A DNA stretch of 64,000 bases from an uncultured Subdoligranulum sp. (GCA_964458285.1 CAYWID010000004.1:147842-211841), one strand, 5' to 3'; counted from the stretch's first letter, positions 4,446-63,859 are shown. Numbers and translations: made by a program. Notes: generated by a model not told the origin, from the sequence alone.

Positions 4446-5429
4446 TCAGCCGTCCATAATCGGGATGCCGGCCTGGCGGCGCGCCCCGTCCAGCAGCGCC
4501 TGCACCAGCAGGCTCCTGTCCATCGCGTCGCGGCAGGCCTGCCGGTCCCGCCGGACAAAGATATCGGCAAAACGGGCCAGCTCGTAGTACAGCCGCTCGG
4601 GCGCATCGTTCAGGGCGTAGGCGGTCGCCTCGCCGCCGTTGGGCTGAAACGTGAAGGACGCGTAGCTGTTGGCCGGGCCGTCGCAGCGCAGGCAGCCGCG
4701 GTCGCCCTGCAGCTGCACCAGGCAGGGGGCCGCGCAGTTTTTGGCCGCGGTCAGGCTGGCCTGCATCCCCGGGTAGTGCAGCAGCAGCACGCCGGAGGTA
4801 TCGATGCCCCGCTCCAGGTTGGCAAAATAGTGCAGGCTTTGCGGCGCGCCGAACAGCCCCACCAGGAAGTACAGGTTGTACAGGTTGAGGTCCATCAGGG
4901 CGCCGCCGCTTTTTTGCGGGTCGAACACGGGCGGCAGCGCGCCCTGGCAAAAAGCGTCGTACCGGCGGGAATACTGCGAAAAATTGAGCGTGGCCACCCG
5001 CACCCTGCCCAGCGCGGGCAGCAGCGCCCGCGTTTTTTCGTAGTTGGGAAGATACTGGTTGCTGATGGCCTCAAACAGGTAAAGGCCCCTGGCCTCGGCC
5101 AGGACGGCCAGCTCCCGCGCCTGCCGCAGATTGGAGCAGAACGGCTTCTCGCAGATCACATGGCGCCCGGCCTCCAGCGCCTGCCGGGCAAAGGCGTAGT
5201 GCAGGTGGTTGGGCACCGCAATGTACACAAAGTCCAGCGATGGGTCGCGCAGCATCTGCGCATAGTCGGTCACCACGGCGGGGATGCCGTGCGCCGCCCC
5301 CAGCGCCTGCGCCTGCTCCCTGTGGCGGGGCGTGCCGCACAGCACGGCCACCTCCCAAGCGGGCAGCCTGGCCGCCGCCGCCAAAAAATCAGGCACGATG
5401 GCGCCCGCCCCCGCAATTCCCAGCTTCAT
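4446..5429 (-). CDS. Gfo/Idh/MocA family oxidoreductase
   Basis: GAGAI Rossmann start, HVICEKP motif, GGALMDL. Confidence 0.92.
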   Translation of the reverse strand: MKLGIAGAGAIVPDFLAAAARLPAWEVAVLCGTPRHREQAQALGAAHGIPAVVTDYAQMLRDPSLDFVYIAVPNHLHYAFARQALEAGRHVICEKPFCSNLRQARELAVLAEARGLYLFEAISNQYLPNYEKTRALLPALGRVRVATLNFSQYSRRYDAFCQGALPPVFDPQKSGGALMDLNLYNLYFLVGLFGAPQSLHYFANLERGIDTSGVLLLHYPGMQASLTAAKNCAAPCLVQLQGDRGCLRCDGPANSYASFTFQPNGGEATAYALNDAPERLYYELARFADIFVRRDRQACRDAMDRSLLVQALLDGARRQAGIPIMDG

Positions 5430-5559: not shown

Positions 5560-5800
5560 GTCGTCGTCCTCGTCGTTCAGCCTGCGCAACCGCCGCCGCG
5601 CCCGCCCTTTGCCGCAAAGCACGCCGCCTTCCTTCTTGGTTGGTGTTGACGTTGACGATGACGATGACTGTAATGTTGATGTTGATGTTGATGTTGATGT
5701 TTACGTTGATGTTGATGTTGGGTTTTTAAAAAACCGTTGGGTTAAAAAAAAACCGTTCGGTTTTTTTTGAGGGAGGGGGGGCGCCCCGGCGGGGGGCAAT
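5560..5800 (-). pseudogene. decayed fragment resembling the linker of DUF6291-type phage/ICE replication-initiator proteins
   Basis: minus frame reads RRGAPPPSKKTERFFFNPTVF*KPNININVNININININITVIVIVNVNT with one in-frame TAA at 5726-5728; family resemblance is from memory, not a search. Confidence 0.45.
5645..5719. repeat. imperfect (GTTGAT/GTTGAC)n hexamer tandem repeat
   Basis: directly visible; encodes an (N-I/V)n tract on the minus strand. Confidence 0.95.
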
Positions 5801-6669: not shown

Positions 6670-6696
6670 CCGGTCAAGGGGCAAAAAAGGCGACAG

Positions 6697-6774
6697 GAAA
6701 GCCCCGCCGAGGGAGGGCGGGGCTTACAGAAAGGAGGAGGAGAAAACATGAAAAAGTGTAGTTTTGTTTGCTAC
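6697..6774 (-). ncRNA. putative anti-SD/anti-AUG small RNA, copy B
   Basis: TTGACG-17-TACAAT promoter; core CUUUUUCAUGUUUUCUCCUCCUCCUUUCUG; hairpin AAGCCCCGCC-CUCCCUC-GGCGGGGCUU; paralogue at 33124-33210. Confidence 0.75.
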
Positions 6775-6780
6775 GGTCTT

Positions 6781-7086: not shown

Positions 7087-7740
7087 ATGGCAAATATCCT
7101 GATCGCGGAGGACGAGCGTGCAATCAACAATCTGATGGCGGCCAACCTGCGGCTGGTGGGGCACGCCTGCACGCAGGCTTTTACCGGCCCCCAGGCGCTG
7201 GAGCTGGCGCAAAGCGGCGCCTTTGACCTGGTGCTGCTGGATGTGATGCTGCCCGGGCAGGACGGCTTTGCGGTGAAAAGCCTGCTTCCCGCCGAGCAGC
7301 CGGTTATTTTTGTGACGGCCCGCACCGGCCTTGGCGACAAGCTCAAGGGCCTTGGCCTTGGCGCGGACGATTACATCGTCAAGCCGTTTGAAATACTGGA
7401 GCTGCTTGCCCGGGTGGAAACCGTGCTGCGCCGCACCCGCCGCAATGCCGAGACGTTCGCTTTTAAAGATCTTTTGGTCGATCTGACGGCCCGGCGGGTG
7501 GTGCGCGGCGGCGAGACGCTGGAGCTTACCCCGCAGGAATTTGCCCTGCTGGAGGCGCTGGTCATCAACCGAAACCTGGCGTTAAGCCGAGAAAAGCTGC
7601 TTTCCATCGCCTGGGGCTACGATTACGAGGGCGAAACCCGCACCGTGGACGTACACATCCAGCGCATTCGCAAAAAGCTTGGCCTTGAGCAGGAGATTCA
7701 AACCGTTTTCAAGGTTGGCTACCGGCTCAACACGCGGTAA
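7087..7740 (+). CDS. OmpR/PhoB family response regulator
   Basis: ILIAEDE, LLDVMLP, GADDYIVKPF, winged-helix RTVDVHIQRIRKKL. Confidence 0.95.
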   Translation: MANILIAEDERAINNLMAANLRLVGHACTQAFTGPQALELAQSGAFDLVLLDVMLPGQDGFAVKSLLPAEQPVIFVTARTGLGDKLKGLGLGADDYIVKPFEILELLARVETVLRRTRRNAETFAFKDLLVDLTARRVVRGGETLELTPQEFALLEALVINRNLALSREKLLSIAWGYDYEGETRTVDVHIQRIRKKLGLEQEIQTVFKVGYRLNTR

Positions 7741-7761: not shown

Positions 7762-9249
7762 ATGACAAAACAAGCCCGCCCTGCGCGGCGGATGGCCTTC
7801 TGGATGCGCACCTACCTTGCCACGCTGGCGCTGTTTCTGGCCTGCCTGGGCGGGGGCGTGCTGGGCGTTACGGTGTTGAGCCGCAACATGAGCTTTGGCG
7901 CCCGCAGCGAGGAATTTTTGACCCACCAGCATATTCTGCTGCAACAGATGGCCGAGGATATCGCGGCGGTGGCCGCCGACCGCCCCGCGGCGCTCAACGA
8001 GCTGTACACCTTTTACGGCCAGCGGGTGCGCGGGCAGGGGATGCGGCTGGCCGTGTGGCAAAACGGCCTGCTGCGCTACAACGACCAGCCCCGCCTTGCC
8101 GCCCGCCCCGAGCTGGACGCCCTGCGCCCCGGCCAGCGCAGCTGGCAGGTGCGGCGGCTGGACGGGCGGCATATCCTGTTCGCCACCACGGCCTTCACGG
8201 GCGAGCTGACCGGCTACACGGTCAGCTGCTGCGCCGATATTGAGGATTTCTACGCCCAGTGGCGGCGGATGGGCAGCCTGGCGCTGGGGCTGGGCGCGGG
8301 CGTCTGCGCGATGTTTGCGGCGGGGCTGTATCTGGTGCTGCGCCGCATGTACCGCCCGCTGGGCGCCCTTACCGCCACGGCCCGCACCCTGGCCGGGGGC
8401 GATTTTTCGGCCCGCGCCGCCGCCGCCCGGTCCGACGAGCTGGGCGAGCTGGCCCGCACCCTCAACGAGATGGCGGGCCGGGTGGAGCGCCAGGTGGGGG
8501 AGCTGGCCGCCGAGGCCGAGAGCAAGCAGCAGCTGGTGGACAACCTTTCCCATGAGATGCGCACCCCCCTTACGGCCATCGGCGGCTATGCCGAGTATAT
8601 CCAGCGGGCCGATCTGCGCGGGGACGAGCTGGCCGAGGCCGCCGACACCATCCTGTTTGAAAGCCGCCGCCTGCTGGGGCTGTCCAACCAGCTGGTCAAG
8701 CTGTCGGTGCTGACGCACGAAACGCCGGAGTTTTGCCGCCTGCTGCCGGAGGGGCTGCTGCGCCGGGCGGTGCAGACCGTGCTGCCCAAGGCCGAGGGGC
8801 GCGGCGTGGCCGTGGTGCTGGCGCCCGGCGCGCACAACGCCCCCGCCCTGGCGGGCGACGCCGATCTTTTGGAAAGCCTGCTGGTCAACCTGGCCGATAA
8901 CGGCATCAAGGCCTGCGGCGCGGGCGGCTCCGTCACCCTTTCCGCCGCGGCGGAAAAAGACGGCGGCTGCGTTTTTTGCGTGCGGGACACCGGGCAGGGG
9001 ATGGATGCGGCCACCCTGGCGCGCATCGGCCAGCCCTTTTACCGGGCGGACAAGGCCCGCTCCCGCGCCGAGGGGGGCGCCGGGCTGGGGGTGGCGCTCT
9101 GCCGCGCCATCGCGGAGGCCCACGGCGCCGTGCTGCAGTACGCCAGCAGCCCCGGCAGGGGCACGTCCGTCACCCTGCGCTGCCCGCCCTGGCGGGAAAC
9201 GCCCGGGCAGGATTTACCGGCCTGCAACATCCCCGATACAGCGCCATGA
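7762..9249 (+). CDS. HAMP-domain sensor histidine kinase
   Basis: two TM segments, HAMP (DELGELARTLNEM), H-box SHEMRTPL, N-box NLADNG, G-boxes DTGQG and GAGLG. Confidence 0.95.
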   Translation: MTKQARPARRMAFWMRTYLATLALFLACLGGGVLGVTVLSRNMSFGARSEEFLTHQHILLQQMAEDIAAVAADRPAALNELYTFYGQRVRGQGMRLAVWQNGLLRYNDQPRLAARPELDALRPGQRSWQVRRLDGRHILFATTAFTGELTGYTVSCCADIEDFYAQWRRMGSLALGLGAGVCAMFAAGLYLVLRRMYRPLGALTATARTLAGGDFSARAAAARSDELGELARTLNEMAGRVERQVGELAAEAESKQQLVDNLSHEMRTPLTAIGGYAEYIQRADLRGDELAEAADTILFESRRLLGLSNQLVKLSVLTHETPEFCRLLPEGLLRRAVQTVLPKAEGRGVAVVLAPGAHNAPALAGDADLLESLLVNLADNGIKACGAGGSVTLSAAAEKDGGCVFCVRDTGQGMDAATLARIGQPFYRADKARSRAEGGAGLGVALCRAIAEAHGAVLQYASSPGRGTSVTLRCPPWRETPGQDLPACNIPDTAP

Positions 9250-22632: not shown

Positions 22633-22661
22633 TTGAATAAAAAGCAAAAGAACATTATAAT
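22633..22661 (+). promoter_or_regulatory. sigma-A promoter of livK
   Basis: TTGAAT-17-TATAAT. Confidence 0.8.
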
Positions 22662-22749
22662 AAATTTCATCATTACAACGCAACTGTGCGTAAAAGGCGC
22701 CGCCTTCCGGCGGGGCCCGGCGTTGTAAAAGTACAGGAGGGAAAGATTT

Positions 22750-23976
22750 ATGAAAAAGTTCGTCAGCGTTGTGCTGGCCGCCGCCATGGCGGCCAGCCTG
22801 GCAGCCTGCGGCGCCACCGCGGATGCCACGGCGTCCTCCGCCACCGCGGAGGGCAGCGCCTCCACCGCCGCGGAGGGCAGCGCCTCCGCTTCCGGCGCCG
22901 CCATCAAAATCGGCGGCATCGGCCCCTTGACCGGCGCGGCCGCCGTGTACGGCAACGCCGTCAAAAACGGCGAGGAGCTTGCCGTCAAGGAGATCAACGC
23001 CAAGGGCGGCACCCAGTTTGAGCTGAAGTTTGAGGACGACGAGCATGACGCCGAGAAGTCCGTCAATGCCTACAACAGCCTGAAGGACTGGGGCATGCAG
23101 ATTCTGGCGGGCCCCGTCACCACCACCCCGACCCTGGCCGTTGCGGCCGAGGCCGCCGTGGACAATATCTTTGAGCTGACCCCCTCCGCCTCCGCGCAGG
23201 CCGTCATCGAGACCGGCGACAACGTCTTCCAGGTCTGCTTCACAGACCCCAACCAGGGCATTGCCTCCGCCGATTACATCGCCGAGAACAAGCTGGCCAC
23301 CGCCGTGGGCGTCATCTACGATTCCTCGGACGCCTACTCCAGCGGCATCTATGAAAAGTTCAACGCCGAGGCCCAGAGCAAGGGCCTCAAGGTTGTGGCC
23401 GCCGAGGCTTTCACCGGCGACAACAAGAGCGACCTTTCCACCCAGGTTACCAAGTGCAAGGATGCGGGCGCCGATCTGATCTTCCTGCCCATCTATTACA
23501 CCGAGGCCTCCCAGATCCTCAAGTACGCCAGCAGCATCGGCTACGCGCCCAAGTTCTTCGGCTGCGACGGCCTGGACGGCCTGCTGGACGTCGAGGGCTT
23601 TGACAAAAACCTTGCCGAGGGCGTCATGCTTCTGACCCCGTTCGCCGCCGATGCCACCGATGCAAAGACCCAGGCCTTTGTCACCGCGTATAAGGCCGCC
23701 TACGGCGAGACCCCGAACCAGTTTGCCGCCGATGCCTACGACGTCGTGTACTCGATCGCGCAGGCCTGCGACGCCGCCCAGGTCACGCCCGACATGAAGG
23801 CCGCCGATATCTGCGAGGCCCTCAAGGCCCAGTTCACCACCATGAAGTTCGACGGTCTGACCGGCACCGGCATGACCTGGGACGCCACCGGCGCCGTGTC
23901 CAAGTCTCCCCGCGCCGTCGTGATCGAGAACGGCTCCTACAAGGCGATGGCCGCCACCGCCGAATCCGCCAAGTAA
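22750..23976 (+). CDS. livK: branched-chain amino acid ABC transporter substrate-binding lipoprotein
   Basis: LAAC lipobox; IGGIGPLTG, EDDE periplasmic-binding type I; followed by livHMGF. Confidence 0.92.
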   Translation: MKKFVSVVLAAAMAASLAACGATADATASSATAEGSASTAAEGSASASGAAIKIGGIGPLTGAAAVYGNAVKNGEELAVKEINAKGGTQFELKFEDDEHDAEKSVNAYNSLKDWGMQILAGPVTTTPTLAVAAEAAVDNIFELTPSASAQAVIETGDNVFQVCFTDPNQGIASADYIAENKLATAVGVIYDSSDAYSSGIYEKFNAEAQSKGLKVVAAEAFTGDNKSDLSTQVTKCKDAGADLIFLPIYYTEASQILKYASSIGYAPKFFGCDGLDGLLDVEGFDKNLAEGVMLLTPFAADATDAKTQAFVTAYKAAYGETPNQFAADAYDVVYSIAQACDAAQVTPDMKAADICEALKAQFTTMKFDGLTGTGMTWDATGAVSKSPRAVVIENGSYKAMAATAESAK

Positions 23977-32274: not shown

Positions 32275-33060
32275 ATGCTGCAACCCTATGAATTTGCCGA
32301 GGATTTTACCGTTTACGGGTACGACGGGGACTACCGGGGCCTTGCCAGGCCGGGGGCGCTGCTGCGCTACGCGCAGGAGGTGGCCGGGCAGCAGTGTACC
32401 CATTACGGCATCACCGGGGAGGTGTACGCCCGCACCCACACGGCCTATGTGCTGGCCAAAACGGCCATGCGCTTTGTCCGCGTGCCCCGCGTAGGCGAGC
32501 GCCTGACCCTGATCACCCAGCCGGAGGCCCTCAAGCGGGCCGTCAACAAGCGCCTGACCGTGGTGCGGGACGCCGCGGGGGAGGAGATTGCCCTGCTGGA
32601 CAGCCGCTGGGTGCTGATCGATACCGAAAAGCGGGTCATCCTGCGCCGCCACCCGCCCGAGGTCTGCGGCCCCTGGGCCGAGGAGCTGGGCCGCAGCCTG
32701 CCCATGAAGATGGCTTCCCGGCCCGGGGACGCCGCCCCCGTGGGGGAGCGCCGGGCCGTTTACTCCCTCTGCGATGCCAACGGCCACCTCAACAACACCC
32801 GCTATGTGGATCTGGTGCTGGACGCCCTGCCCCCGCAGGCGCTGGACGGCGCGGCGGTGGAAACCCTGCTGATCTTTTACCACAAGGAGGTGCCGCGCGG
32901 GGAAGCGTTTATGCTGTACCGGGCCCAAACGGCCCCCGGCCGCTGGTATTTTTGCGGCGTGCGGGAGGATAAATGCTGCTTTGAGGCCGAGCTTTCCCTC
33001 CGCGCGCTGCCCTGGCGGGACGGCGCCGCGGCGGGCGAAGCGCCGCAGGGCGGCGGCTGA
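32275..33060 (+). CDS. acyl-ACP thioesterase (FatA/FatB-like double hot-dog)
   Basis: LRYAQEVA, CDANGHLNNTRY motif. Confidence 0.88.
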   Translation: MLQPYEFAEDFTVYGYDGDYRGLARPGALLRYAQEVAGQQCTHYGITGEVYARTHTAYVLAKTAMRFVRVPRVGERLTLITQPEALKRAVNKRLTVVRDAAGEEIALLDSRWVLIDTEKRVILRRHPPEVCGPWAEELGRSLPMKMASRPGDAAPVGERRAVYSLCDANGHLNNTRYVDLVLDALPPQALDGAAVETLLIFYHKEVPRGEAFMLYRAQTAPGRWYFCGVREDKCCFEAELSLRALPWRDGAAAGEAPQGGG

Positions 33061-33063
33061 AAC

Positions 33064-33117
33064 GTTACAATTTGTTTACAAAAAGGCCTTGACAACTGAT
33101 GACAAAATTGTTACAAT
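33064..33117 (+). promoter_or_regulatory. sRNA promoter with two 7-4-7 direct-repeat boxes
   Basis: GTTACAA 33064, TTTACAA 33075, TTGACA 33089-33094, ATGACAA 33099, GTTACAA 33110, TACAAT 33112-33117. Confidence 0.82.
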
Positions 33118-33123
33118 AAGCTT

Positions 33124-33210
33124 GCAAGTTCAACCAATTCCTTCTTTTTCATGTGTTTTTTTCTCCTTCTCCTCTGCGCCCCCGCCAATCCCTCCGGCGG
33201 GGGCCTTTTT
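33124..33210 (+). ncRNA. putative anti-SD/anti-AUG small RNA, copy A
   Basis: own promoter; core CUUUUUCAUGUGUUUUUUUCUCCUUCUCCUCU; terminator GCCCCCGCC-AAUCCCUCC-GGCGGGGGC-CUUUUU; no sense ORF with an RBS. Confidence 0.8.
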
Positions 33211-33211
33211 A

Positions 33212-33240
33212 TTGACAGGGCGGCAGGTTTTTGCTATACT
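33212..33240 (+). promoter_or_regulatory. sigma-A promoter of the opp operon
   Basis: TTGACA-17-TATACT with TG extension. Confidence 0.88.
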
Positions 33241-33408
33241 GTATCAAACCACTCTTTACGGCGCGCAATAGAATTTGGAAAAAAGGGGCAAACAAATGAC
33301 TCACAAGGAAGTGGGCGTTGTTTGCTTTTTGTCTTTTTTGGGCGCCGCCCAAAGAGCGGGGGAGCGCCGGGCAGAACGCTGCGCGGCGGAAGAAAGGATG
33401 GAAACGTG

Positions 33409-35397
33409 ATGAAGAAAAGCGGTCAACTTTTGGCCGGCCTGCTGGCTGGCGCTTTTTGCTTTTCCCTGGCGGGCTGCGGCTCCGCCGGCGGCAGCGGCGC
33501 AACCGGGGAGGCGGCCTCCGGCGGCGCCGCGGCCCCCAGCGTCTACCGCACCCTGTATTCCAGCGAGGTAACCACCCTGAATTACCTCACCACCAGCAGC
33601 ACAAACGAGTACGCCATCGGCGCCAACGTCGTGGATTCCCTGGTCGAGTACGACAGCTACGGCAGGATCATCCCCTCCCTGGCCGAGAGCTGGAGCCACA
33701 ACGACGATATGACCGAGTGGACCTTCCACATCCGCAAGGGCGCCAAGTGGGTGGATCAGACCGGCAAGGAGGTGGCCGATGTCACCGCCAACGACTGGGT
33801 CTCCGCGGCGCGCTACGTCAACGACGCCCACAACGATTCCGCCAACCAGTATATGTACAACACGGGCGCGGTCGTCCACAACGCGCAGGCCTACTATGAC
33901 TACACGGCCTACCAGCTCACGCTGGAAACGAACAACCTTGCCACCGGCGAGAACGCGGCGGATTCGGACGGCAACCCCATCACGGTCGTGGACCCCGTGG
34001 ATCCCGCCAGCATCGGCGTGCGGGCCGCCGACGATTCCACGCTGGTCTACACGCTGGATCAGCCCTGCCCGTTCTTTCTCACAGTGCTGTCCTACACCTC
34101 CTATATGCCGGTGTACGGCCCGTTTTTGGAGGAGAAGGGCAGCCAGTTCGGCCTGGACAACGAGAGCCTGCTCTACAACGGCGCCTACATCCTCTCGACG
34201 TTTGAGCCGCAGGACAGTCATATCCTGACCAAAAACCCCGCCTACTGGGACAAGGACAACGTCTTTATCGATAAAATCCAGGAAAAGTACAACCCCGAGG
34301 CCACCAGCGTGGAGGCCACCATGTACAAGAACGGCGAGGTCGATCTGGCCCACATCAGCGCCGATCTGCTGGATTCCTGGCTGAAGGACGACGCCACCAA
34401 AAACCTTGTCCACGGTTCCCGGCCGGACAATGCGTTCAGCTATTTCTACTGCTTCAACTTTGACCCCGAGTTCGACGCCCAGTACGAGCCGGAAAACTGG
34501 AAAAAGGCCGTCAACAACGAGGATTTCCGCCTTTCGATCCTTCACGCGCTCGACCGCGTCAAGGCCAAGACGGTCAGCGAGCCGTACGACCCCAAGAGCC
34601 TGCTCTGCAACACGGTCACCCCGGCCAACTTTGCCGTGGGCGCCGGGGTGGATTACACCCAGTACCCGGCGCTGCAGGCGTTTACAAACGGCGACAGCTT
34701 TGACGCCGCCGCGGCCGCGGCCAGCCGGGACAAGGCCCGCACGGCGCTTGCCGCCGAGGGCGTTACCTTCCCCGTCAAGGTGCTGATGCCCTACAACCCC
34801 ACCTCCCCCAACTGGGACAAGGAATGCCAGGTGGTGGAGCAGCAGCTTGAGGGCGCCCTCGGCGCCGATTACATCGATGTCATCGTGCAGGCCGGCCCCG
34901 AGACGGGCTTCCTGTCCTCGGTGCGGCGCAGCGGCAACTACGCGCTGCTCAAGTGCAACTACGGCGCCGATTACGCCGACCCCATGACCTACACCGATCC
35001 CTTCACCAAGGGCAGCAACTACAATTTCTGGGATACCAGCACCGACCCCGCCACTGCGGCCCTGTTTGCCGAATGGGAGGCCAAGGTCAAGGCGGCCTCC
35101 GCCATCTATAACGACGACGGCGCCCGCTACAAGGCTTTTGCCGAGGCCGAGGCCATCCTGATCGACCACGCCATCGTAATCCCCTACAGCATTTCCTCGG
35201 GCGAGGGGTACGTCGCCAGCAACCTCAACCAGCTGGAGGGCGAGTACGCCCCCTACGGCGTGGCGCGGGAGCGGTACAAGTACGAGCATCTTTACCCCAC
35301 CTCGATGAGCATGGAAGAATTCCGGAAGGCCTACGACGCCTGGGTGGCCGAGCGCACCCGGGCGGTGGCCGCCGCCACAACGGAATCCGCGTCCTGA
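33409..35397 (+). CDS. oppA: oligopeptide ABC substrate-binding lipoprotein
   Basis: LAGC lipobox; TTLNY, DSLVEYD, WTFHIRKGAKW (SBP family 5). Confidence 0.93.
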   Translation: MKKSGQLLAGLLAGAFCFSLAGCGSAGGSGATGEAASGGAAAPSVYRTLYSSEVTTLNYLTTSSTNEYAIGANVVDSLVEYDSYGRIIPSLAESWSHNDDMTEWTFHIRKGAKWVDQTGKEVADVTANDWVSAARYVNDAHNDSANQYMYNTGAVVHNAQAYYDYTAYQLTLETNNLATGENAADSDGNPITVVDPVDPASIGVRAADDSTLVYTLDQPCPFFLTVLSYTSYMPVYGPFLEEKGSQFGLDNESLLYNGAYILSTFEPQDSHILTKNPAYWDKDNVFIDKIQEKYNPEATSVEATMYKNGEVDLAHISADLLDSWLKDDATKNLVHGSRPDNAFSYFYCFNFDPEFDAQYEPENWKKAVNNEDFRLSILHALDRVKAKTVSEPYDPKSLLCNTVTPANFAVGAGVDYTQYPALQAFTNGDSFDAAAAAASRDKARTALAAEGVTFPVKVLMPYNPTSPNWDKECQVVEQQLEGALGADYIDVIVQAGPETGFLSSVRRSGNYALLKCNYGADYADPMTYTDPFTKGSNYNFWDTSTDPATAALFAEWEAKVKAASAIYNDDGARYKAFAEAEAILIDHAIVIPYSISSGEGYVASNLNQLEGEYAPYGVARERYKYEHLYPTSMSMEEFRKAYDAWVAERTRAVAAATTESAS

Positions 35398-62439: not shown

Positions 62440-63816
62440 TCAGCCATTGGCAAGCTTATACTCGGTCGCCCAGCCGTCCACAAACGCGGTCTTGACGGCA
62501 TTCCAGTCGCCGGTGCCGGCAGCGTAAGCGGTCAGAGCGGAACCGACGCCATTCTTCCAGTTCTCGGAAGGCATGGTGGAGAAGCACCACGCAACCGGGG
62601 TCTTGCCGTCGGCAATATACTGGTTGGAAGCCTGGATCAGCGGGTTGGTTGCCTCGTATTCGCCGGTAAAGGTGTCAAACGGAGTGACGAAGCCCATATC
62701 CTGGCTCATGGATTTGCGGCCCTCGTCGCTGGTAATCACCCAGTTCAGGAAGTCGAGGGTGGCCTGGATGTCCTCAGGCTTGGATTCCTTGTTCACGCAC
62801 CAGTAGTTCTCGGAGCCGGTGCAAAGGCCCTGGTTCTCCTCGCCCTCGGCGCCGATGTAGATGGGCAGCATGCCCAGGTTGTCGTCGCCCAGGCTCTTGA
62901 TGTCGTTGTAGGCCCAGGTGCCGTTCTGGTAGAACACGGCCTTGCTGCCCGCAAACTCTGCGGTGGCGTCATCGCCGGTCTTGCTGGCCAGCAGGGTGGG
63001 GTCGCAGGTGGAATCGGTGATGTACAGATCCCAGATCTTCTTGTAGTTGTCGAGGTAGGTGCCCTTGATGGCGGCGGTGGAAGTCTCGTTGTCGGCCTTG
63101 TACTCATAGTAGATGGGCAGGTTGGCCAGGTGGGTCTTGAAGCGCCAGTCGGAGGAGGAATCCATGCCGGCGGAGGTGAAGGCGCCGTCCACGCCAAGCT
63201 CGGCCTTGCGTGCCTGGATATCGTCTGCGGCGGCCTTCAGCTTGTCAAAGCTGTTGATGTCCTCGGCCTTGTAGCCTGCCTTGGTCAGCAGCGCCTTGTT
63301 GTAGATGATGCCGTAGGTCTCAATGACGTAGGCGATGCCGTCCACCGCGCTGCCGTCCTTCAAAGCGAAGTCGTCGCTCTTGAGGTGCTTGTACAGCTCG
63401 GAGCCGGACAGGTCGTAGCAGTAATCCTTCCAGTTGGCAAGACCCACGGGGCCGTTGACCTGGAACAGGGTGGGCGCGTCGGTCTTGGCAATCTCGCTCA
63501 TCAGGGTAGTCTCGTACTCGCCGGAGGCGGCGGTGACGACCGTCACGGGAACGCCGGTCTGCTGGGTGTAGGTGGTGGCCAAAGCCTGCCAATCCTTATC
63601 CTGCTCGGGCTTGAAGTTCAGGTAGTATACCTTGCCGCCTGCGCTGGTAGCGGCGGTGCTGGCCGCGGTGTCCGCGGTGGACGATGCGGCGGCTTCGCTG
63701 GAAGCGGCGGTAGACTCACTGGAAGCGGCGGACGAAGCGCTGGAACCGCACCCGGCCAGCATACCCGCTGCCATGGCGGACGCCATACTGATGGCAAGAA
63801 CTTTCTTAGCTTTCAT
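62440..63816 (-). CDS. maltose/maltodextrin ABC substrate-binding lipoprotein
   Basis: LAGC lipobox, Ser/Ala linker, YYLNFKPE, SBP family 1; context with malQ. Confidence 0.9.
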   Translation of the reverse strand: MKAKKVLAISMASAMAAGMLAGCGSSASSAASSESTAASSEAAASSTADTAASTAATSAGGKVYYLNFKPEQDKDWQALATTYTQQTGVPVTVVTAASGEYETTLMSEIAKTDAPTLFQVNGPVGLANWKDYCYDLSGSELYKHLKSDDFALKDGSAVDGIAYVIETYGIIYNKALLTKAGYKAEDINSFDKLKAAADDIQARKAELGVDGAFTSAGMDSSSDWRFKTHLANLPIYYEYKADNETSTAAIKGTYLDNYKKIWDLYITDSTCDPTLLASKTGDDATAEFAGSKAVFYQNGTWAYNDIKSLGDDNLGMLPIYIGAEGEENQGLCTGSENYWCVNKESKPEDIQATLDFLNWVITSDEGRKSMSQDMGFVTPFDTFTGEYEATNPLIQASNQYIADGKTPVAWCFSTMPSENWKNGVGSALTAYAAGTGDWNAVKTAFVDGWATEYKLANG

Positions 63817-63859
63817 TGCTATTCTTCTCCTAAAATGCTTGGTTGTGATTTGCTGAACG

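Follow-up and report, generated by a model that had tools for sequence, protein, structure and literature searches.

A Gemmiger small RNA family predicted to pair with translation initiation regions, and a livK-type binding-protein mRNA as one of many plausible targets

In enterobacteria, the small RNA (sRNA) GcvB reduces the synthesis of many periplasmic binding proteins that serve amino-acid and peptide ATP-binding cassette (ABC) transporters (oppA, dppA, livJ/livK), and in Bacillales RsaE/RoxS base-pairs through its C-rich motifs with Shine-Dalgarno (SD) sequences, its targets in Staphylococcus aureus including opp-3 genes. To our knowledge, almost nothing is known about post-transcriptional control in Gemmiger, a genus abundant in the guts of humans and animals, and a search of the literature for small RNAs in Gemmiger or Subdoligranulum returned no publication. 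Here we analyze the translation initiation region of a livK-type gene and its predicted duplex with a putative sRNA, present as copies A and B, in a window of 64,000 nucleotides (the whole stretch of DNA under study; GCA_964458285.1 CAYWID010000004.1:147842-211841, labelled uncultured Subdoligranulum sp.), with positions counted from its first letter. The genome of the window comprises 2.35 Mb at 63% G+C and belongs to the genus Gemmiger.

Two described groups of sRNAs come closest. The csRNAs or Ccn RNAs of Streptococcus, which belong to the CiaRH regulon, carry an anti-SD sequence and a CAU in an unpaired region, occur as sibling copies behind promoters for a response regulator and are found in bacteria without Hfq (PMC3091779, PMC4507080). 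Six targets have been found, four of which are transporter genes, and the csRNAs are thought to block translation initiation, as shown for comC, where complementarity to the spacer matters (PMC3091779, PMC4507080). LhrC1-5 of Listeria monocytogenes, which are controlled by LisRK, are pyrimidine-rich and multicopy, and pair with the ribosome binding sites of mRNAs for surface proteins and lipoproteins including OppA and TcsA (PMC5880928).

In the Gemmiger window, the livK-type mRNA would be a plausible target, one of many, of a genus-wide sRNA family that pairs with translation initiation regions, a reading to which we give about even weight. The elements concerned are the following.

22633-22661, plus strand: likely livK promoter TTGAAT-17-TATAAT, from a promoter scan
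22735-22758, plus strand: livK translation initiation region pairing with copy A (SD AGGAGGG, 10-nt spacer, AUG, AAA AAG)
22750-23976, plus strand: livK-type gene for a lipoprotein substrate-binding protein of a branched-chain amino-acid type ABC transporter (Pfam Peripla_BP_6, 1.8e-47)
33089-33117, plus strand: predicted copy A promoter TTGACA-17-TACAAT with TG preceding the -10 box (11/12 consensus matches, none expected in shuffles; kept in congeners)
33124-33211, plus strand: putative sRNA copy A, about 88 nt with predicted ends, consisting of an unpaired 5' part (about 55 nt) and an intrinsic terminator
33141-33175, plus strand: anti-initiation-region core of copy A, CUUCUUUUU-CAU-GUGUUUUUUU-CUCCUUCUCCUC, of which segment 33144-33167 pairs with livK
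33187-33195, plus strand: terminator loop of copy A, AAUCCCUCC, which carries UCCCUC
6684-6778, minus strand: putative sRNA copy B, a BLAST match to copy A, with promoter TTGACG (6809-6804)-17-TACAAT (6786-6781), core CUUUUUCAUGUUUUCUCCUCCUCCUUUCUG (6756-6727) and terminator (6723-6699)

Positions 22735-22758 of livK read AGGAGGGAAAGATTTATGAAAAAG, and the reverse complement of copy A at 33144-33167 is AGGAGAAAAAAACACATGAAAAAG. The predicted duplex spans 24 nt with no gap, 23 of the 24 positions being paired (18 Watson-Crick, 5 G-U) and the remaining one a U-U mismatch. Exactly this pairing was returned by ViennaRNA, at -24.4 kcal/mol, so that the gap-free duplex with one U-U and five G-U pairs proposed in the initial annotation is borne out both by reading the sequence and by computation. 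Opening the two sites costs little, 3.0 kcal/mol for the livK mRNA and 0.3 kcal/mol for copy A. From the predicted promoter, livK would have a leader of about 80 nt, in which a GC-rich hairpin precedes an accessible initiation region (fold of 22669-22800). The encoded N-terminus, MKKFVSVVLAAAMAASLAACG, contains a lipobox, and livK orthologues were found in 12 of 15 congeners. The leader hairpin, within 22669-22730, is closed by ACAACGC/GCGUUGU immediately 5' of the SD; it has no Rfam match and no T-run.

The family to which both copies belong is widespread in the genus. Homologues of copy A are present in at least 19 same-genus genomes, and the core block UUUUCAUGUGUUCUUCUCCUCCUUUC (genus consensus (C)UUUUUCAUGUGUUCUUCUCCUCCUUUC) is invariant across 19 congeners, the preceding C being present in most. 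An exact match to the 26-nt core is present in 45 species-representative genomes, which with few exceptions carry the label Gemmiger or 'Subdoligranulum variabile'; cultured strains that carry it include G. formicilis ATCC 27749 and G. gallinarum DSM 109015. Outside the core, the 5' linker differs in sequence and ranges from 15 to 55 nt, some congeners with a longer 5' part gain a 5' hairpin (for example the complete congener genome G009), and the terminator stems vary by compensating pairs. Next to CAU on its 5' side, (C)UUUUU is conserved, while the sequence further 5' varies freely. The 3' part of the consensus core equals the last 10 nt of the genus 16S rRNA (CCUCCUUUCU; GGAUCACCUCCUUUCU); because the rRNA operons are missing from this assembly, the 16S 3' end was read in congeners. 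Copy A departs from the consensus by a U7 spacer and by CUCCUUCUCCUC. Since a U7 spacer pairs with any purine, this explains why the gap-free livK duplex is seen with copy A only.

A second conserved element lies in the terminator loop, where UCCCUC is invariant in all 21 copies (copy A, 33187-33195; copy B, 6714-6708 on the minus strand; and the congener homologues) despite variation of the stem. It is complementary to the GAGGGA of the livK SD (GGAGGGA), which is found in all 12 livK orthologues, and GAGGGA is present in 13% of lipoprotein initiation regions versus 4% of others (p 0.003). The motif may serve as an additional anti-SD carried in a loop, as in the LhrC/RNAIII type. At the predicted transcript start (33122-33128), UUGCAAG is shared by copy A and each of the 19 congener homologues but is missing from copy B.

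That this block does not act in trans at all is very improbable. According to such an explanation, it would serve the opposite strand, as the start of a small MKK... peptide, or be the cis leader of the downstream opp operon, with the livK match arising by chance; the reverse complement of the block does read as a textbook SD-AUG-AAA-AAG start, and copy A does lie directly upstream of oppA. However, it is the sRNA strand on which a promoter and a terminator have been kept, together with compensatory stem changes. Both variants were examined and rejected. Open reading frames on the opposite strand run from 3 to about 60 codons and are unrelated between species (MKK-stop, MKKIC-stop, 13 amino acids and so on). 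As for the opp leader, the sRNA has its own terminator, a separate opp promoter follows it, and congeners share the upstream thioesterase gene but not the downstream neighbour.

In its general design the putative sRNA resembles the csRNAs: it would stand alone, occurs as sibling copies, would work without Hfq (no Hfq gene was found in this 99%-complete genome assembly) and has promoters with direct repeats, possibly for an OmpR-type regulator. Copy B is divergent from genes for an OmpR-type response regulator (7087-7740) and a histidine kinase (7762-9249). Both sRNA promoters (33060-33117; 6840-6781 on the minus strand) show direct repeats (GTTACAA/GTAACAA/TTTACAA) that recur every 11 bp and lie both upstream of the -35 and -10 boxes and across them. 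In addition, the predicted fold leaves the core CUUUUUCAUG...CUCCU single-stranded, which matches the unpaired anti-SD and CAU stretch of the csRNAs. The differences are equally clear. In csRNA genes, the -10 box is preceded at a distance of 10 bp by a CiaR box TTTAAG-N5-TTTAAG (PMC3091779), whereas neither promoter here contains TTTAAG, the GTTACAA-like repeats being found instead. Two stem-loops flank the unpaired stretch of the csRNAs, while in copy A only the terminator hairpin (33178-33204) is predicted to form (-21.9 kcal/mol, z -3.4). The Gemmiger sRNA, from a member of the Clostridia, has no sequence relation to the csRNAs, and its block continues for 5-6 nt into coding sequence (anti-Lys-Lys) and copies the 16S tail over 10 nt.

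It recalls LhrC in being multicopy and pyrimidine-rich, in its predicted lipoprotein targets and in a UCCC-type loop motif, here one invariant UCCCUC in the terminator loop in addition to a CU-rich single strand. LhrC, in contrast, uses short UCCC seeds in loops and single strand, with no continuous mirror of SD, spacer, AUG and codons 2-3, and the Gemmiger sRNA has neither sequence nor Rfam similarity to it. A search of Rfam with copies A and B gave no family at the gathering score and nothing relevant at E<=10. The candidate would thus be a familiar kind of regulator, csRNA- and LhrC-like, that probably belongs to neither family. The initial annotation had suggested a GcvB/RsaE-like role in the control of nutrient uptake. 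As to role, the comparison is apt; as to pairing logic, which would be of the csRNA type with Hfq absent, it does not hold. GcvB has a G/U-rich seed (R1), pairs with C/A-rich sites upstream of or beside the SD, depends on Hfq and is controlled by GcvA/GcvR, whereas the Gemmiger sRNA has a C/U-rich seed directed at SD and AUG, in a genome where the Hfq gene was not found, and no Rfam match. RsaE/RoxS has two CCCC loop motifs, acts mainly on central metabolism and lacks an anti-AUG or anti-codon extension, so that the Gemmiger sRNA, again without an Rfam match, differs from it in anatomy.

To place livK among the initiation regions of its genome, 1899 genes were called with a codon-bias and SD scorer made for this analysis, and 1896 initiation regions (-35 to +25) were scored against both sRNAs. 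By raw duplex energy, livK ranks 15 with copy A and 60 with copy B; with opening energies, computed in an IntaRNA-like sliding-window scheme in which coarser grids move its rank between 33 and 54, it ranks 33 (A) and 49 (B), and with the genus-consensus sRNA 26. For copy A the energy including opening is -22.3 kcal/mol, against a genome mean of -10.5 (sd 4.9). Depending on the method, livK therefore lies within the top 0.8-2.9% of the 1896 regions, and only 7 of 400 dinucleotide shuffles of copy A and 5 of 400 of copy B bind it as well as the real sRNA does. The place of livK in the top tail is thus confirmed against a shuffled background. Pyrimidine-rich RNAs in general fit purine-rich ribosome binding sites, which makes the energy rank alone weak evidence.

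Geometry, that is ungapped pairing in register, discriminates better than energy. When the 24-mer of copy A was slid without gaps across 4,689,868 positions on both strands, three sites matched at 23 or more of 24 positions: the antisense of the sRNA gene itself, livK, and C5:144893, which belongs to a Bmp/PnrA-type binding lipoprotein. The livK and C5:144893 sites have an identical register on the AUG. One hundred shuffles of the 24-mer gave a mean of 0.08-0.3 such sites and a maximum of 1. Neither copy B nor the genus consensus forms a gap-free mRNA duplex of at least 22/24 in this genome, and the sRNAs of the congeners likewise have no gap-free mRNA partner at that level. Gap-free pairing as the mode of the whole family was rejected, as the near-perfect ungapped matches to the consensus 24-mer in 25 congeners are the sRNA genes themselves; at two mismatches, about one further match per genome was found, versus about 0.5 for a reversed control. 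Taken with the ranks, livK is plausibly a good target of the predicted pairing, not a privileged or unique one.

We also examined which class of genes the sRNAs favour. A lipobox pattern marks 67 predicted lipoprotein genes; 27 of these start with MKK, the commonest N-terminus of the genome (61 genes). Among the 50 best targets by accessibility energy, copy A has 11 lipoproteins (p 6e-7; 1-7 in composition-matched shuffles) and copy B 15-16, the strongest enrichment (p 3e-11; shuffles 4-5), while the genus-consensus sRNA, run on the same genome, has 15 where about 1.8 are expected by chance. Lipoproteins make up 3% of the genes outside the top 50. For copy B, for the consensus and for G009 (see below), the enrichment exceeds every shuffle tested. 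Pfam assigns 25 of the 32 highest-ranking lipoproteins to families of ABC substrate-binding proteins, namely SBP_bac_1, 3, 5, 8 and 11, Peripla_BP_4 and 6, Bmp, NlpA, ABC_sub_bind and PBP_like_2.

This preference depends on the conserved (C)UUUUU 5' of CAU. When the sRNA is cut at CAU, removing the part that pairs with codons 2-3 (AAA-AAG), the top 50 contain 3-5 lipoproteins and livK drops to rank 217-309. Among MKK genes, lipoproteins have a median energy of -18.1 kcal/mol versus -13.4 for non-lipoproteins (p 8e-5). The median gap between MKK lipoproteins and other genes is 6-8 kcal/mol, and 33-52% of MKK lipoproteins fall in the top 5%, versus about 4% of ordinary genes. The analysis was replicated with the first 1.6 Mb of G009, in which 1155 genes were called and the native sRNA was used. 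There, the top 30 contain 8 lipoproteins (p 3e-6; shuffles 0-4; truncated sRNA 3) and the top 5% contain 15 of 40 (shuffles 1-5), the livK orthologue ranking 40 of 1155. A preference for exported proteins whose signal peptides start with MKK, as first proposed, is therefore recovered in silico as a class preference through enrichment, truncation and a second genome, while 'exported MKK' proves too broad a label, lipoproteins scoring better among MKK genes. Judged from sequence, some 15 to 30 nutrient-binding lipoprotein mRNAs, livK included, appear to fit the family-wide design.

The same comparisons bear on the idea that an abundant mimic of the 16S tail and initiator anticodon acts as a global brake, titrating many strong initiation regions, for example upon stress or entry into stationary phase, with no bias towards binding proteins in vivo. 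The identity of the consensus anti-SD with the last 10 nt of 16S rRNA, the near-consensus promoter and the non-lipoprotein majority among the top 50 predicted targets all agree with it. Yet it would require the sRNA in large excess over hundreds of mRNAs, a generic anti-SD needs neither an extension to codons 2-3 nor a conserved spacer, and the median predicted energies of MKK lipoproteins differ from those of other genes, as given above. We regard a brake of this kind as improbable.

Several observations weigh against livK as a target and against a lipoprotein-directed family. Between 30 and 50 other genes, mostly non-lipoproteins, score as well as or above livK, and shuffled CU-rich sRNAs reach -22 kcal/mol or lower at 19-65 initiation regions, compared with 66 for the real copy A. 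The energy scheme, the gene calls and the lipoprotein labels, which were assigned by a regular expression, are home-made approximations with some false positives. All livK orthologues in the 12 congeners retain AGGAGGG-N9-12-AUGAAAAA(A/G), but no covariation between livK and the sRNA was found among them: spacers drift and the sRNA shows no matching change, and the C or A that precedes the U-run in the congener sRNAs does not follow the third base of livK codon 3. With the consensus core, the energies of the livK orthologues span the 2nd to 37th percentile of initiation regions. Strong SD, A-rich spacer and AAA as second codon mark efficiently translated genes generally; because the recognized features are common to such genes, the enrichment could arise incidentally, from complementarity to an ideal initiation region. 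Finally, csRNA specificity depended on the SD-AUG spacer, with six targets only (PMC4507080).

These points can be combined into an alternative in which the sRNA is real and the fit to binding proteins follows merely from complementarity to an ideal initiation region, the few true targets being set by other determinants (a spacer match, the 5' UUGCAAG, the UCCCUC loop) and livK not being among them. The low-energy matches of shuffled RNAs, the lack of covariation over 12 congeners and the failure of copy B and the consensus to form a gap-free duplex with any mRNA fit this account, as does the precedent of the csRNAs, which share an anti-SD and anti-AUG design yet have only six verified targets, one of them spacer-dependent (PMC4507080). 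It does not sit well with the conservation of (C)UUUUU, the source of the lipoprotein preference, despite free variation 5' of it, nor with a lipoprotein enrichment that tops all shuffles for copy B, the consensus and G009, nor with the finding that both gap-free copy A sites are binding-protein starts in exact register. We consider this alternative possible, though on the unlikely side.

Under the reading that we favour, in which livK is one target of a genus-wide family, an sRNA of about 90 nt with its own promoter and terminator would act in trans and independently of Hfq. Within its unpaired block, (C)UUUUU would pair with AAA-AA(G), the Lys-Lys codons, and CAU, the same triplet as the anticodon of initiator tRNA, with AUG; a U-rich spacer of 8-10 nt would follow, and then CUCCUCCUUUC, which matches the 16S rRNA 3' tail. 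By combining anti-Lys-Lys, CAU, spacer and 16S tail, the block would present to the mRNA those contacts that a 30S subunit makes at initiation. The sRNA is predicted to cover mRNA positions -20 to +9 and would thereby block initiation, possibly with mRNA decay as the next step. As the block extends to codons 2-3 and requires a strong SD, an open spacer rich in purines and AUG-AAA-AA, the best fit would be to starts of ABC substrate-binding lipoproteins, which most often combine these features. Its likely role would be to lower the synthesis of nutrient-uptake lipoproteins upon a signal, possibly one from a two-component system.

A more far-reaching version, which we offer only tentatively and hold to be rather doubtful, is that of a 'ribosome-mimic' RNA (16S tail, initiator anticodon and anti-Lys-Lys in one molecule) that throttles the whole nutrient-binding lipoproteome as a class, without Hfq and on a two-component signal, species copies such as copy A being retuned through their spacers to, for example, livK. 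Should the favoured prediction hold, one sRNA would set the level of many ABC binding proteins (for sugars, amino acids, peptides, nucleosides and methionine) and so shape uptake, and sRNA specificity without Hfq would be seen to arise from complementarity that is long, exact in register and inclusive of the first signal-peptide codons. The analysis yields a concrete, ranked and testable list of targets, together with cultured strains that bear the exact core.

Two further initiation regions of the window had been named as fitting the sRNAs.

33390-33417, plus strand: oppA initiation region, AAAGGA-UGGAAACGUG-AUGAAGAAAAG (as checked, AAGGA-UGGAAACGUG-AUGAAGAA); coding sequence 33409-35397, Pfam SBP_bac_5
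63808-63840, minus strand: initiation region of an SBP_bac_8 (Pfam) sugar-binding lipoprotein gene; coding sequence 62440-63816

The SBP_bac_8 gene reads UAGGAG-AAGAAUAGCA-AUGAAAG, and for both genes the spacer of 10 nt, as in livK, was correctly described. The duplexes of oppA with the sRNAs are interrupted, and that of the SBP_bac_8 gene has a 4-5-nt internal loop. By raw energy, oppA ranks 132 (A) and 72 (B) of 1896 and the SBP_bac_8 gene 547 (A) and 1223 (B); with opening energies, the ranks are 165 (A) and 37 (B) for oppA and 272 (A) and 609 (B) for the SBP_bac_8 gene. Of the two, oppA is a middling candidate, and the SBP_bac_8 gene lies outside the tail. An open reading frame of 748 aa (33151-35397) begins at an ATG inside the sRNA core, in frame with oppA, and is a high-G+C artefact; the true oppA start is at 33409 and has an SD and a promoter to itself.

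The top-ranked prediction for copy A is the mRNA of an SBP_bac_1 lipoprotein at C5:59027-60340 (minus strand) of this genome. Its start region matches the reverse complement of copy A in perfect blocks of 13 and 10 nt (BLAST E 0.04), and copy A may have been retuned to this start region or may derive from such a start region. No orthologue of this gene was found in 15 congeners, so it cannot be the conserved target of the family.

Elsewhere in the window, imperfect 6- and 12-nt repeats (GTTGAT/GTTGAC/GATGAC) occupy positions 5639-5722, between an oxidoreductase-like gene (4446-5429, minus strand) and a gene for a Crp/Fnr-type regulator (5813/5909-6601).

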